A stretch of 64,000 bases of DNA from a virus (Duplodnaviria; Caudoviricetes). The stretch is taken from IMG/VR virus record IMGVR_UViG_3300046804_003398; one strand, 5' to 3'. The notes beneath the pieces were generated by a model. It saw only the letters and a program-made list of their open reading frames with translations, searched no databases and was not told where the DNA came from. Shown piece after piece: positions 14,326 through 20,062 of the stretch; positions within the stretch are counted from its first letter, which is position 1, and the number at the start of each line of letters is the position of its first letter. Position numbers and translations under genes: made by a program.

Positions 14326-14970
14326 ATGATCGGCAACATAACTTACGAATATTTACTGTGTAAACCCAATATTATATCTTGGCTACTGACGATTGCCGAT
14401 CTTGAAAAGAATTCAACATTAGCTAGAGCAGCAAGAGGATTGGCTTTTGATATAAATGGTAATGTTTTGTCTCTTACACCCGAATACAATTTGTTGTATG
14501 CAAAGTATGAATTCAAGGTAGTTCAACAACGAGTTGGAAATGGAGCAACACTTGGATATGTTTTATATGAATATTATGCGGGTAAAAATCAATTGGTATA
14601 TGTAGGTGTTATTCAAGAATTTTGTGAAAAACAATTGGAACCATTTATACCCGGTCCAGCACCTGAGCCCACTGTTGAGCCAGAACCTCCAACCCCCACA
14701 CCCACACCTACTCCCACACCAACTGCTACAGCAACTCCAACTCCAACTCCTACGCCAACCCCAGCTGGTCCGACTGCTACGCCTACGCCGACTCCTACCG
14801 TTACGGCTACACCGACACCCACACCGACCTCTACACCTACGCCCACTCCAACTCCTGTTGGTCCAACGGCTACGCCAACACCTACCCCAACGGTTACTCC
14901 AACTCCTACTCCAATTCCTCCATTAGGCGTGATATTCGCAATGGCTGGTGGTGGAGAAACCTATTTATAG
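14326..14970 (+). CDS. Pro/Thr-rich linker protein (putative virion decoration)
   Basis: ~100-aa globular N-terminus then ~85 aa of (PT)n; ATATTTATT upstream. Confidence 0.7.
14665..14915 (+). repeat. Pro-Thr codon tandem repeat
   Basis: CCN-ACN degenerate hexamer repeat encoding PTPTPT. Confidence 0.9.
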
Positions 14971-14978
14971 AATAACAT

Positions 14979-17900
14979 ATGGCACTACTAGCTCCAAGAT
15001 ATTTAAACGGAACAAACTACAGCGATATATCGACACTCACACCGCAAGATACAAATTACACGATATATCAGCCTGAACGTTATGGTTATCGAATTGGTCA
15101 AGAGAACATAATTCCCTACATCTCGTCTCTTATCTACAAGTATCAACGTGCAGATATTAGTGCCGGCACTCACTGGTGGGGTAGAAAAAGCACAGACCCT
15201 ATGTTTTTGCCAAATACTGCATATCCTGCGATTGATTTGTTGTTATCATCTGGATACAGTGTTGAGACCCAAAATGGATATGAACTAAACGGTGCCGGAA
15301 AGAATGCGACCATTTTAAAGAGAGTGGATGATTATGACAAGACAGGGGGGTATGGTGGATTTGGAATTGTTCCATCTGGAGTTAATTCTTCATATCAAAT
15401 CACAACTTCGGGCACAACATTTACTGCATATTGGCCTGAAGTTTTAACATCTGTTGGAACATACTATTGGCAAAAATCTACAGATGGTGGGACAACATGG
15501 AACACCATCGCGACTGGTGCTGGTCCTACTATTCCAAACTATACTATTTCTACGTTGACTCCGAGTGATTCAGGTAAATACAGATGTGTTGTTTTAACCA
15601 GTCCAGTGTATACTTTTAACAGTGGATATCTCGCCAGTATAGAAATTACAATAACCGAATCAGGTGGAGTATACTTTGTGTCATGGTATTTGAATAACTC
15701 ATCAAACATGTTTTATTCGAATTTCTATGCGGATACTGACGATGTGATTATTCGTGATATGACTTGGGATGGTAATCAAAACAACAACTTCACTGTCAAT
15801 AGTCCCACAAACTCAGGTATATTTATCAAAGGCAAAAGAACACAAATATCAAGATGTAAATTCATAAACTTTGGTGTGGGAAATTCTCTTTATTCATATC
15901 CAGGTCAAGGCGTTGGTGAGTGTTTTGTAATTTTAGCAACAACAACAAACTACAAAACTGATACTGGACCAACAATTGAAGAGTGTGAATTTACTTCGCC
16001 AGGTATTAAAAATGGTCCAGATGTTTCAGGTGCTACACCAGAATATACATGTATAGCATTCAGTGGTTTAGACGCCGTTGTTAAAAACAATAAGTTCTAT
16101 GACTTGAAATTCAATACCAATCAAAGAAGTCCAGTCCACTGTGTCAGTTACGGCGGAAGTTACAACTCAAAGATGATCGGTAACTCATTTGTTAACATTG
16201 ATGGCCAGGCATTTTATGTAGATAGTTATCCAGTCACAGGATCATATATTCAGAACAACTACATAAGTGCTTCATGGTTCGCATTTAGTATAACATCACA
16301 ACCATGGAGTGATCCAAATCAAGTGACCAACTTTAAGGATATTGATTTCAGCAACAACACAGTTATTTTGTCAGATGGTCCAACTACATATGAGTGGTTT
16401 GCTGGTCAAGGTGGAAATGTGTATCCTAGTATTTATTTTGGTTATGTCAAGACTTCTGGTATGGTTACACCATTCAGTAATGTAAAGAGTCATAACAACA
16501 AATTGAAACTTGGTTATTATGATGGATCTGCCCAAAATGGATGGCCTGCCAATTTAGCAGCTGCTGGTGACAGCAGTATTTTATGGTCATTCCCAACTGG
16601 AGGAACTTATTTTGGTGCATCTACGTTTACATCATCAAACGAAACATTAGTAACCAGTTTTCCAACATCAAGTATGCGATTGTCATCCAAGGTAAACAGA
16701 GTTGTTTCGCCTGGTGAACTTTCATATGTTGTATCTAAGGACTCAAACAATCCAATCGGAACTGGAACACAAACTCAAGTAGCCACAGTTTCGTCGTCGT
16801 TCTTAAATCCAAGTAATGGTTCGTTTGTGGTGACCAATTTCAAGAATCTTTCAAAGAATTCTACCTATTATTACTGGTTGAAACACAATGCTGGTAATAT
16901 CTACTATTCATCTAGTTTGTATTTAACGTCAAGCACATATCTTGGAAAGTTCAAGACCAGACCAAACGGATATGAACCATACTCATTTACAGCAAGTTTT
17001 GCAAGTTGTATGCAAAGCAACACTGTATCAACCATATTCAACAAAATCAAGAATTACAATCCCGATGTATTCATTCAAATAGGTGATATATTCTACTGGG
17101 ATGGTAGCCAAGAACCATCATCAACTGCGCAACATGAAAGTGCATATCAAAATGTGTTTTCATCCGCTTCTGGTTACCTATCGTATGGTTCTCCAAATCC
17201 AAACTATTTTCCAAACATGTTAAAGAACGTAGCATTCGACTACATGTGGGACGATCATGACTATGGCAACAACAATTCGGATGGAACCAACGTAAACAAG
17301 GGTCACGCTGCTTTGTCAGTAGCTACGATGGTTCCACACGTTCCGTTCACAGCTCCTACTACAACATACACATCCGCATCAGTGAGTGTGAACTTCCAAC
17401 CAATATATCATTCATGGAACGTAGGAAGAGTCAAGTTTATCATTACCGACAATAGAAGTGAAAGATCTCCATATACTGATCCAGATACGCCATCAAAAGT
17501 TATATGGAGTGCTACACAAGAATCTTGGTTCATGAATGAAGTTCGTGACACAAGATATCCCATAAAATTCTGGGTCAACACATATCCATGGGAAGCAACA
17601 AATTCAGCACCATATGATGGTGATGATGGTTGGGAAGACTATACATACTATAGACAAAAAATTGCCAACTTCTTCACAAGGTTCTCGGGTTCAATTGGCA
17701 AGCTTATTGTGTTGTCTGGTGACGCACACATGACTGCGATAGATGACGGATTGTATTCTACTTGGTATGGTAGTGGAAGTAGATTGTCTCCACCAATGAC
17801 CATATATCATTCAGCACCAATAGATCAGTTTGGTAGCAGAAAAGGTGGACCTTATATGTTAAGCGGGTCAGACATTCTTCGTGGCGGATCAACTGCTACT

Positions 17901-18209: not shown

Positions 18210-18218
18210 ATATTTATA
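18210..18218 (+). promoter_or_regulatory. recurrent (A/C)TATTTAT(A/T) late-promoter-like motif (representative copy)
   Basis: Also at 12788, 14309, 14961, 40523, 42553, 43547 and 47051 (+) and 9973, 39798, 46992, 57872 and 60452 (-), always 3-16 nt before an ATG on the coding strand. Confidence 0.75.
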
Positions 18219-18223
18219 CTCAT

Positions 18224-20062
18224 ATGATTATTGATTGGGCTGTTTATTATCAACAAAATAAGCATCTTCCATTGAATAGAGTGATGGAAGACTACAAAGT
18301 AATGCTTAACGAGTTTAATGAGATGATGACTCTCATAACTCAACAAAGTGGACAAGCTGCCGGAGGCGGTGGCGGAACAACCCCATCCCCAACACCACCT
18401 GGTCCAACACCAACACCAACACCAACTTCTACAGTCACTCCAACTCCAACAGTCACGGGAACACCAACTCCTACTCCCACTACTACATCAACACCTACGC
18501 CAAGCCCAACGCCTACTGCAACTGCTACATCAACACCTACTCCTACTGTTACTCCGACACCTACTGCAACTCCTGAGCCAGTTTATACGTTTGGTTTATT
18601 AGGTGACAGTGGTCAAGCTGGGTTGTTGACTTATACTCAAGCAGTTGCAGATGGAATTCAAAGTCGCAATCCAGATTGGGTGATACATTTGGGTGATGCA
18701 AACTATAGTGGAATTCCAGAAGTAATGACCAACTTCTTGGATTATTGGTCGAGTTATGATTATGCGAACGACATGTATTTTGCATTTGGTAATCATGATT
18801 TGGATTATGACTATGGTGCTACAATATTGAGTAAATTGACTGCGGTGAATACTCTTATAGGTGCAACAAAAGTAACAAATAGACTTTATTGTTATGATTT
18901 TGTTCGTGGACCAATCCATTTCTTTGTGTTTAATAGCGGTAACAGTCCAGCCGGAGATTCAATGAATGAAGCAATAGATCCTAACATCCAGTTGTCTTCT
19001 CAAATTAGTGAATTGGAACCAAAGATTTTAGCTTCTAGTGCTCCATGGAAGATAGTTGTAGTTCACAGACCACCTTGGTCAAGCGAACAAATTCATAGAA
19101 CTGGAACACCTCCAATGAGATTGGATTATGCGGCTTTGGGTGTTAATGTAGTATTGAGCGCACACTCTCATGATTATGAATATATCTACACCGGTGGAGT
19201 TCCATACTTCGTTCAAGGACTTGGTGGAGCTACAAAACGTTGTGCTGTTGATCCTAGAGTTGATGGCGCAGTATTTGATTTCTGTGATCAATGGGGTTAT
19301 ACCATGGTTTCCGCAACTTCAAATCAATTGACGTTCACAACATATGACATAGATGGTAACACAAGAGATACAAGAGTAATCGCAAAGGGAACACCAACCC
19401 CAACGGCAACTCCTACATCAACACCAACTGTAACGCCAACTCCTACCGTTACACCTACCACTACTCCAACTCCAACACCAGGAGGACCAACGGCTACTCC
19501 TACGCCAACACCTACGATAACTTCAACTCCAACTCCATCACCTACCCCAATTCCATCTTCTACCCTATTACAATCGGGTAGTAATTGGAAATATTTGGAT
19601 GATGGATCTAATCAAGGAACTGCCTGGACCGGTGGTGCGTTTAATGATAGTGCTTGGTCGTCTGGAAATGCTCCTCTTGGATATGGCGATCCAATGACTA
19701 CCACAATCAGTTATGGACCAGATGCTAGTAACAAGTATATAACTTACTACTTCAGAAAACAGATCAACATACCTGATATCTCAGCTGTCACGAATGTGTT
19801 GATTAAGTTGAGAAGAGATGATGGAGCTGTTGTTTATTTCAATGGAACCGAAGTGTTGAGAGACAATATGCCTCTTGGAACAATAACTTATTTGACCACA
19901 GCTGTCGCAGCACAATCTGGTGCTCAAGAAACAACTTATTATGAATTCACTGTGTCTCCATCTTATTTGACTAGTGGCACTAACACCATTGCAGTAGAAA
20001 TCCATCAATCTGGACCTACAAGCAGTGACTTAGGATTTGACATAAGTTTGATTTCCGCATAA
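18224..20062 (+). CDS. purple-acid-phosphatase-like metallophosphoesterase with PT linkers and C-terminal beta-sandwich
   Basis: GD, GDANY, GNHD, VVHRPP and SAHSHDY motifs; two PT tracts; C-terminal WKYLDDGSNQGTAW..APLGYGD..TYYFRK domain. Confidence 0.85.
   Translation: MIIDWAVYYQQNKHLPLNRVMEDYKVMLNEFNEMMTLITQQSGQAAGGGGGTTPSPTPPGPTPTPTPTSTVTPTPTVTGTPTPTPTTTSTPTPSPTPTATATSTPTPTVTPTPTATPEPVYTFGLLGDSGQAGLLTYTQAVADGIQSRNPDWVIHLGDANYSGIPEVMTNFLDYWSSYDYANDMYFAFGNHDLDYDYGATILSKLTAVNTLIGATKVTNRLYCYDFVRGPIHFFVFNSGNSPAGDSMNEAIDPNIQLSSQISELEPKILASSAPWKIVVVHRPPWSSEQIHRTGTPPMRLDYAALGVNVVLSAHSHDYEYIYTGGVPYFVQGLGGATKRCAVDPRVDGAVFDFCDQWGYTMVSATSNQLTFTTYDIDGNTRDTRVIAKGTPTPTATPTSTPTVTPTPTVTPTTTPTPTPGGPTATPTPTPTITSTPTPSPTPIPSSTLLQSGSNWKYLDDGSNQGTAWTGGAFNDSAWSSGNAPLGYGDPMTTTISYGPDASNKYITYYFRKQINIPDISAVTNVLIKLRRDDGAVVYFNGTEVLRDNMPLGTITYLTTAVAAQSGAQETTYYEFTVSPSYLTSGTNTIAVEIHQSGPTSSDLGFDISLISA

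Follow-up and report, generated by a model that had tools for sequence, protein, structure and literature searches.

The DNA analysed here is a window of 64,000 nucleotides (nt), i.e., the whole stretch that was available, from the IMG/VR virus record IMGVR_UViG_3300046804_003398 (Duplodnaviria; Caudoviricetes); it stems from an uncultured virus and has a G+C content of ~37%. Within positions 14326-20062 it carries three adjacent open reading frames (ORFs) on the plus strand, P0001, P0002 and P0003, which encode a protein with a proline/threonine (PT) linker, a fusion of a beta-helix with a PhoD-type phosphatase, and a protein with a domain of the purple acid phosphatase (PAP) type, respectively. 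A sequence-only reading of this DNA had described three consecutive genes, each with an upstream TATTTAT motif, had assigned their domains and had considered the PAP-type motifs intact. This description is borne out by our analysis: the motif starts 13-17 nt before the three ATGs, the domain calls (PT linker; beta-helix, Ig-like domain and PhoD; helix, PT linker, PAP, PT linker and beta-sandwich) agree with Pfam and fold matches, and the PhoD active-site columns and the seven PAP metal ligands are all present. The same reading saw here a block of PT-linker, beta-helix and Ig-like proteins, which applies to these three genes but no further, since P0001-P0003 are the sole PT-linker ORFs in the 64-kb window. 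The elements of the locus are listed below (lengths of proteins in amino acids, aa; L numbers denote loci of relatives).

14326-14970 (+): ORF P0001, 214 aa, PT-linker protein
14979-18197 (+): ORF P0002, 1072 aa, beta-helix + Ig-like + PhoD fusion
18224-20062 (+): ORF P0003, 612 aa, helix-PT-PAP-PT-beta-sandwich
14310-14316 (+): TATTTAT, promoter-like, 16 nt before the ATG of P0001 (the anchor2 gene); conserved in L001, L003, L004 and L008
14326-14640 (+): anchor2 module, P0001 residues 1-105, an orphan N-terminal domain of ~100 aa
14650-14934 (+): PT linker of 95 residues, P0001 residues 109-203, encoded by imperfect 6/12/18-nt repeats
14935-14970 (+): C-terminal stub of P0001 and stop codon; matches strand 1 of the PhoD module in relatives, e.g., P0010
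14637-18168 (+): 3.5-kb segment missing from L008, with PT linker, stub and the whole beta-helix-Ig-PhoD gene
14962-14968 (+): TATTTAT, 17 nt upstream of the P0002 ATG and overlapping the P0001 stop codon; not conserved in L003
14979-16658 (+): N-terminal half of P0002, residues 1-560, with head (1-125), Ig-like domain (130-235) and right-handed parallel beta-helix (~250-555)
16662-18197 (+): PhoD module, P0002 residues 562-1072, with a beta-sandwich and the catalytic metallophosphatase domain, conserved columns intact
18211-18217 (+): TATTTAT, 13 nt before the ATG of P0003; kept before the anchor1 gene in L003 and L008, TATATAT in L001
18224-18361 (+): anchor1 module, P0003 residues 1-46, with a short and then a long helix (the latter 17-46)
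18365-18595 (+): first PT linker, P0003 residues 48-124, 77 residues
18575-19393 (+): PAP-type metallophosphoesterase domain, P0003 residues 118-390, with seven metal ligands; L008 has PhoD there
19379-19570 (+): second PT linker, P0003 residues 386-449, 64 residues
19556-20062 (+): C-terminal beta-sandwich, P0003 residues 445-612; shared with the PhoD-bearing P0010-P0013 and with P0039

The linker of P0001 (residues 109-203) contains 37 prolines and 35 threonines. None of the three proteins has a hydrophobic N-terminal segment, a twin-arginine (RR) motif or a transmembrane segment (maximum KD19 <=1.05), in agreement with the earlier claim that a Sec or Tat signal is lacking; the check was a simple hydropathy analysis, not SignalP or TatP. 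Some of the more distant cellular PAP-domain homologues (e.g., P0057, P0070), unlike P0003, start with a hydrophobic, lipoprotein-like leader.

The two phosphatase domains

The PhoD domain of P0002 is recognized by Pfam (PF09423, residues 675-923) with 55.9 bits (cut-off 27; E 5e-15), and the profile of this family matches a solved secreted alkaline phosphatase (9uya, E 1.7e-13). The model of residues 562-1072 superimposes on PhoD of Bacillus subtilis (2yeq_A) with a Z score of 28.1 and a root-mean-square deviation of 3.1 Å over 396 aligned residues, and a Foldseek match of the same fold reaches E 3.2e-16. Judged against cellular PhoD homologues (alignment A1), all active-site columns are kept in P0002 (C677, D703, Y706, D758, D759, H760, N765, D915 and H917). 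Of the 21 other aligned sequences, 19 also have a fully conserved site; P0009 (see below) and P0016, which is without the domain, do not. To judge from sequence and model, the PhoD domain of P0002 looks active.

In front of the PhoD module, residues 43-555 of P0002 form a right-handed beta-helix in the AlphaFold model, which matches an alginate epimerase/lyase (Z 20.5) and the phage tailspikes HK620 (Z 18.3) and CBA120 TSP2 (Z 17.6). Because bacterial alginate epimerases/lyases score above the tailspikes, this fold match has to be regarded as generic. Among the fold matches in BFVD are Klebsiella phage depolymerases and an Enterococcus phage "virion protein with calcineurin-like phosphoesterase domain". 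At the sequence level the beta-helix half has no match in the PDB and only weak Ig V-set matches. The Ig-like domain (residues 130-235), with a predicted local distance difference test score (pLDDT) of 77-91, likewise gives only weak V-set matches, and the head (residues 1-125) is modelled poorly (pLDDT 28-53). The N-terminal half of P0002 also exists as a stand-alone protein of 617 aa, P0016, in another metagenome.

For P0003, the Metallophos profile matches residues 122-318 with 53.1 bits (cut-off 21.5; E 7e-14), and the catalytic domain is modelled with a pLDDT >90. The top 32 Foldseek matches in the PDB are all PAPs or PAP-like proteins, the best being human and pig ACP5 (human ACP5 E 1.9e-14; template modelling (TM) score by target 0.64-0.68). 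An alignment to the motifs of sweet potato PAP 1xzw (the PAP set being DxG, GDxxY, GNH[DE], VxxH and GHxH) reveals all seven metal ligands, i.e., D128, D158, Y161, N190, H281, H314 and H316, with the last motif reading AHSH, not GHxH. This domain, too, looks active on sequence and model, and its presumed designation as an "acid" phosphatase is taken over from the family. A scan of IMG/VR with P0003 returned no relative, and INPHARED contains no relative of the PAP domain at E 1e-5 or better. The C-terminal beta-sandwich of P0003 (ESM-Atlas model) matches accessory domains of secreted bacterial proteins with TM scores of 0.95-0.98, its partners being lamin-tail, chitobiase-C, GH71, type IX secretion system (T9SS)-tailed lysyl oxidase and PA14-like proteins. 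Since accessory domains of secreted or surface proteins in bacteria have this fold, the sandwich is probably a binding module.

Anchor modules and exchange of cassettes

The modules at the N-termini of P0003 and P0001 recur in metagenomic relatives with other cargo. Anchor1 (46 residues) is identical in P0010 and 98% identical in P0039. It precedes a PT-PhoD-PT-sandwich arrangement in the metagenomic homologues P0010, P0011 and P0013 and is joined to PhoD in P0015. P0039 (908 aa) has the order anchor1-PT-PAP-PT-NAGPA-sandwich, with a PAP domain 87% identical to that of P0003 and, ahead of the beta-sandwich, a NAGPA/phosphodiester glycosidase domain (PF09992, E 1e-14). The combination of a PAP with a phosphodiester glycosidase makes chemical sense only for sugar-phosphate polymers, and P0039 would, from its domains, be a two-enzyme chain suited to sugar-1-phosphate polymers. 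Anchor2 occurs in relatives as stand-alone proteins of 87-121 aa or is connected via PT or proline/serine (PS) linkers to PhoD (P0012, P0014), to PAP (P0041-P0044), to Ig-like repeats (P0086; a 297-aa protein of L007), to a Gly-rich domain (P0082) or to domains without assignment (P0092, P0099). The surroundings of P0082 (L014) consist of large unannotated ORFs without PHROG matches. Each fetched locus has one anchor2, either fused to or directly upstream of a phosphoesterase gene. In INPHARED, anchor2 is unmatched at E 1 or better. A prediction of a complex of anchor2 and anchor1 scored 0.00, which counts neither for nor against binding. Conserved N-terminal modules with variable distal cargo are the usual layout of fibre and decoration proteins.

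The slot that holds these genes is syntenic in L008, L001 and L004, which represent three levels of divergence, and follows a plus-strand group with SpoU methylase and GIY-YIG genes. A minus-strand group of metallophosphoesterase, methyltransferase and thymidylate synthase genes comes after it in L001 and L004; the contig of L008 ends before that group. At the DNA level, the flanks of the slot in L008 are 91-96% identical to the window. Nevertheless, the window has an extra 3.5 kb (14637-18168), comprising a PT linker and the whole beta-helix-Ig-PhoD gene, and between anchor1 and the sandwich a PAP (18566-19418) replaces the PhoD of L008; the breakpoints of this comparison fall at repetitive PT-coding DNA. 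L003 is intermediate, with a beta-helix-PhoD gene followed by anchor1-PT-PhoD. The locus is a cassette-swapping slot, in which modules are shuffled at PT-linker borders with rapid exchange between close relatives. Such strain-level diversification of cassettes is typical of host-interaction genes. The end of P0001 matches the first PhoD strand of the anchor-linked relatives, which makes P0001 the remnant of an anchor2-PT-PhoD gene that was split by insertion of the beta-helix cassette. A frameshift fusion of P0001 and P0002 was considered and rejected, the frame of P0002 containing a TAA at 14973-14975, just before its ATG.

A relative of P0002 with an altered active site deserves separate mention. 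P0009 (L007:2129-5410) is a full-length protein of 1093 aa that is 49% identical to P0002, and it adjoins an anchor2-Ig-like protein. Six conserved columns are substituted (in P0002 numbering D703N, D758N, D759S, H760A, N765G and H917A), so that P0009 looks like a dead enzyme. That it is nevertheless of full length suggests a role able to survive the loss of catalysis and argues for one beyond metabolism.

Proposed display on the particle and its alternatives

From sequence and models we consider display of the three proteins on the virion plausible, with chances that are about even. The enzymes would be synthesized in the cytoplasm, probably at a late stage, under TATTTAT-type promoters that leave very short leaders, and, carrying no export signal, would reach the outside together with the particle, to which the N-terminal modules (anchor2, anchor1 and the beta-helix head) would most likely fasten them. 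Outside, they would act on phosphate-ester-linked polymers of the host envelope (teichoic-acid-like, sugar-1-phosphate or capsule): PhoD, on its tailspike-like beta-helix, would cut phosphodiesters, and the PAP, held by two PT tethers of 64-77 residues and a binding-type sandwich, would remove exposed phosphomonoesters. We give this particle-associated breakdown of a phosphate-linked envelope polymer, in which one enzyme cuts the diester and the other removes the monoester, slightly less than an even chance. It is favoured because PhoD of B. subtilis is a teichoicase, because virion-borne phosphodiesterases exist and because P0039 couples a PAP to a glycosidase. The teichoicase activity of this enzyme is endo-acting and extends to glycosylated wall teichoic acid (PMC7086022), and teichoic-acid phosphodiesterases borne on virions are listed for phi29 (gp12) and Ld17 (the GDPD) (PMC6116005). 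The sequence-only reading had also proposed release of phosphate near the infected cell, which is less supported than action on a phosphodiester-linked surface polymer.

Several observations speak for display, all of them indirectly. The architecture, with PT tethers and a beta-sandwich, is of an extracellular type as in secreted bacterial enzymes, and P0002 has a tailspike-like beta-helix (Z 17.6-20.5, including matches to polysaccharide lyases). The anchors are conserved and their cargo is swappable, with cassettes being exchanged between near-identical phages. Furthermore, the same PAP clade (35-58% identity) is fused to other phage modules: the N-terminus of P0048 matches phrog_14467, a "virion structural protein" (E 4.5e-11), P0052 belongs to a gene block with a terminase gene at its start and a tailspike-type K1-lyase_C domain within it, and P0045 adjoins Gp23, portal and prohead protease genes. 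A weak precomputed Pfam label of SU10 adaptor for P0052 could not be reproduced by Pfam, PHROGs or a PDB profile search and was not used. The N-terminal modules of P0050 and P0045 are unmatched in INPHARED. In phage P1312, the gene of a PhoD-like protein of 1096 aa comes right behind those of the tape measure and a tail protein. The full length of the seemingly dead P0009, the Enterococcus phage virion protein among the fold matches and, in L011, the placement of TATTTAT ahead of head-block genes and a PAP fusion point the same way.

A number of points weigh against this reading. The genes do not lie in a tail or baseplate module: in the window and in L001, L004 and L008 the neighbours of the slot are SpoU methylase, GIY-YIG, glycosyltransferase and methyltransferase genes, and the slot is placed between SpoU methylase/GIY-YIG genes and a minus-strand cluster of glycosyltransferase, methyltransferase and thymidylate synthase genes. 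The search for the N-terminal anchors on other proteins, which the sequence-only reading had recommended, located them on metagenomic relatives with swapped cargo but on no known virion protein: anchor2 has no match in the PDB or Pfam and no consistent PHROG match in profile searches, anchor1 has none among known virion proteins, and the head of P0002 (residues 1-125) has none in PHROGs, Pfam or the PDB. The AlphaFold model of P0002 is moderate as a whole (mean pLDDT 64). The other genes of the window with an upstream TATTTAT encode an acetyltransferase, DNA-binding-like proteins and proteins without assignment, none of them structural by PHROG. Finally, phoD of Anabaena phages has been read as a metabolic gene with transcription of its own, separate from that of the neighbouring neck fibre genes (10.64898/2026.02.14.705889).

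Other explanations were considered. The PT linkers, the binding-type sandwich and the lack of a signal would fit equally well with soluble late enzymes that are set free by lysis and either strip phosphate-linked receptors from debris, as receptor-destroying enzymes that keep progeny from being trapped, or free phosphate from dissolved organic phosphorus around the host cells that remain, and the position of the genes outside any virion module and the frequent occurrence of anchor2 as a small stand-alone protein agree with this. We regard release by lysis as unlikely, however, as it leaves unexplained the conserved N-terminal modules on every cargo, the fusion of the PAP clade to virion-type modules in other phages and the full-length variant with a dead site; a diffusible public good would also be hard to select in a lytic phage. 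Phosphorus is often limiting in fresh water, and the sample is freshwater or riverine, a setting in which the genes might serve inside the cell as auxiliary metabolic genes (AMGs), recycling host phosphate esters in the cytoplasm for genome synthesis as proposed for cyanophage pho genes. The neighbouring metabolic and modification genes, the export signal absent by the hydropathy check and the presence of phoD in freshwater phages of Anabaena, Nostoc and Dolichospermum, where it is highly transcribed during infection, are in line with such a function. Yet a phosphate AMG of the cyanophage type would be expected to be a host-like enzyme tied to phosphate stress and free of virion-type modules, while phage-specific anchors, tethers and a beta-helix are present here. 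PT tethers, a secreted-type sandwich, a 500-residue beta-helix with an Ig-like domain and swappable N-terminal modules are unexpected in cytoplasmic scavengers, as is the dead PhoD site of P0009, and P0039 adds a phosphodiester glycosidase aimed at sugar-phosphate polymers. An intracellular AMG role therefore seems quite unlikely.

The loss of six active-site residues in P0009, with its whole architecture kept, could alternatively mean that the proteins serve as fibres or decorations and that their enzyme-like domains act mainly as adhesins for phosphorylated glycans, with catalysis being dispensable. The Ig-like repeats carried by anchor2 in relatives (P0086 and the L007 protein) fit with this, and such repeats also occur in decoration proteins of the Hoc type. 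Full conservation of both active sites in the window, and of the site in nearly all of the other aligned sequences, argues for selection on catalysis, which makes a mainly adhesive function improbable. Anti-defence roles of phage metallophosphoesterases have been reported (PMC12287305), and the enzymes could accordingly destroy nucleotide immune signals or phosphorylated defence intermediates in the cell; PAP/ACP5-type and PhoD folds with tethers and a sandwich are, however, unlike the known signal-degrading enzymes, and a metallophosphoesterase of 259 aa encoded elsewhere in the window (24505-25284, -) is a better candidate for an intracellular role, so that we consider counter-defence very improbable. 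The metallophosphatases of crAss-like and Staphylococcus jumbo phages were set aside, being replication-module enzymes in the literature.

Display on the particle can be extended to a plug-and-display system, an elaboration we offer tentatively and think rather unlikely to hold in full. Here, the two orphan N-terminal modules would make up the system: anchor2, by itself or in a fusion, would fix to the particle, long PT tethers, possibly glycosylated by the phage's own numerous glycosyltransferases, would hold interchangeable enzymes at a distance from it, and recombination at PT repeats would re-equip close strains. The virion would be an enzymatically active particle, and the enzymes would form a two-step set for the degradation of phosphoglycans, with PhoD as diesterase and PAP as monoesterase, to which a relative would add a phosphodiester glycosidase.

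Phi29 gp12, like P0002, is also a beta-helix protein. Its likeness to the proteins studied here, shared by the baseplate GDPD of the Lactobacillus phage Ld17 (PMC6116005), is that of a particle protein cutting phosphodiester-linked wall polymers at adsorption, which is what we propose for our case. There, however, the active sites are those of a GDPD and a beta-helix, whereas here two metallophosphatases, PhoD and PAP, are combined with PT tethers and orphan anchors and are encoded outside the tail module. ORF22 of Thermobifida phage P1312 (KT021004.1, PMC4569894) shares a PhoD domain with P0002 (27% identity, E 3e-19) and is likewise a multi-domain PhoD-like phosphodiesterase, with a carbohydrate-binding-type module (CBM). 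Unlike the window proteins it is located among tail genes and has a predicted signal peptide, and it is without the beta-helix/Ig part, PT tethers or a partner PAP. The nearest PhoD of cultured phages is that of cyanophages (Anabaena phages Elbi, A-Hlh1 and A-Lf14, Nostoc phage YongM and Dolichospermum phage Dfl-JY23), with 27-33% identity (E ~1e-35). These are freshwater phages in which the gene adjoins neck fibre genes, but the protein has ~650 aa and no beta-helix, anchors or PT linkers, and it is taken as a phosphate-acquisition gene product with independent transcription (10.64898/2026.02.14.705889).

Among cellular and structurally characterized proteins, B. subtilis PhoD (2YEQ), a Tat-exported phosphodiesterase/alkaline phosphatase and endo-teichoicase, has the same fold and the same Cys, Asp, Tyr, His and Asn columns as P0002. 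The identity is, however, only ~17%, and P0002 has no twin-arginine signal and carries the domain behind a beta-helix/Ig module of 560 residues. With ACP5/TRAP (1war, 2bq8, 1ute), its best fold match, P0003 has all seven ligands in common, including the PAP-defining Tyr, at an identity of 18-22%; the P0003 domain differs in having a PT linker on either side, a phage-specific helix at the N-terminus and a sandwich at the C-terminus. Tailspike depolymerases (HK620, CBA120 TSP2 and the K1 lyase of a Klebsiella phage) have a right-handed parallel beta-helix of similar size, but P0002 shows no sequence similarity to them and has no recognizable particle-binding N-terminal domain.

Phage PhoD genes and putative PAP- or PhoD-like modules on phage fibres are on record already (P1312, the Anabaena preprint, actinophage annotations). 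New here are the pairing of PhoD with an ACP5-type PAP, the two orphan anchors, the PT-tether architecture, the exchange of cassettes with a split gene, and the location outside a virion module. If the enzymes are on the particle, PhoD and ACP5-type PAP would join the short list of virion-borne phosphodiesterases, and the lineage would show how phages re-equip their particles when enzyme cassettes are swapped at linkers of low complexity; the anchors could serve as handles for display, and phosphate-linked surface polymers would be indicated as receptors in freshwater bacteria. Should they instead be released by lysis or work inside the cell, they would be relevant to the way in which very large phages cover their need for phosphorus. 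The related phages, which have PhoD or PAP by itself, both enzymes, a dead PhoD, or a PAP with a glycosidase, constitute a natural experiment on the roles of the modules.

The TATTTAT motif and the setting of the locus

TATTTAT occurs 42 times in the window against 22.8 +/- 5.6 copies expected, a count reached in none of 100 shuffles, and 13 of the copies start 11-23 nt before predicted start codons; at these 13 starts no Shine-Dalgarno sequence is visible. The motif appears, from its placement, to behave like a gene-proximal promoter motif. On the coding strand it reads (A)TATTTAT(A/T), i.e., the T4 late consensus TATAAATA in reverse-complemented form; as the coding strand does not have TATAAATA as written, a late promoter of the T4 type was rejected. 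In L011, a T4-type contig, 6 of 13 copies lie 4-31 nt before starts, namely those of the portal, S77 prohead protease, two head-block genes, a PAP fusion of 754 aa and the first gene of its cluster, whereas no copy stands just upstream of the starts of dUTPase, PhoH or dCMP deaminase. The copies before the portal, protease and head-block genes and the PAP fusion are those of L011:13678-20662. This bias towards structural genes (Fisher p 0.02) comes from a small sample in a phage other than the one studied here. The motif seems, by sequence, to be common to a wider phage group. Its earlier description as "late-type" is supported in part by the portal, prohead protease and head-block genes of L011, but not by the motif-bearing genes of the window, which are not recognizably structural.

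The exact sequence of the window is present in freshwater metagenome runs, and parts of it occur in many riverine runs. A megablast with the window detected no INPHARED phage that is similar at the DNA level. Its gene content includes thymidylate synthase, a helicase and methyltransferases. The helicase (48039-49661, +) matches phrog_62 (E 2e-49) and has no tblastn match at E 1e-10 or better among 50,697 INPHARED records, so that the lineage is distant from all cultured phages.

The phosphatase genes are immediately followed by four glycosyltransferase-like genes (20350-24202, -), three of which (21412-24202) are paralogues with mutual DNA cross-matches of 65-80%; that they glycosylate the Thr-rich linkers is speculation. 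The 259-aa calcineurin-like metallophosphoesterase mentioned above (E 9e-8) keeps its position in L001 and L004, in contrast to the variable cassettes, and probably has an intracellular role. The slot itself is flanked by two small ORFs on the plus strand, 14003-14278 (91 aa) and 20075-20353 (92 aa), which have no family match and are kept in L001, L003 and L008. In L004, a more distant syntenic relative on a contig of 164 kb, two cytochrome c (Cytochrome_CBB3-type) genes as well as Thg1, YopX and a ClpP-like protease occur near the slot (L004:800-1462 and 6465-8578), and the cytochrome genes may hint at the physiology of the host. A protein of 739 aa (54140-56359, -) carries a phage lysozyme domain at its C-terminus (Pfam E 7e-8; phrog_7 endolysin E 1e-14) and could, from its domain and size, be a large tail-lysozyme-like or endolysin-fusion protein. 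The window also carries eight tRNA genes (4372-8100, +), i.e., Lys-TTT, Glu-TTC, three Met-CAT, Ile-TAT, Leu-CAA and Leu-TAA, several of which are 84-92 nt long.

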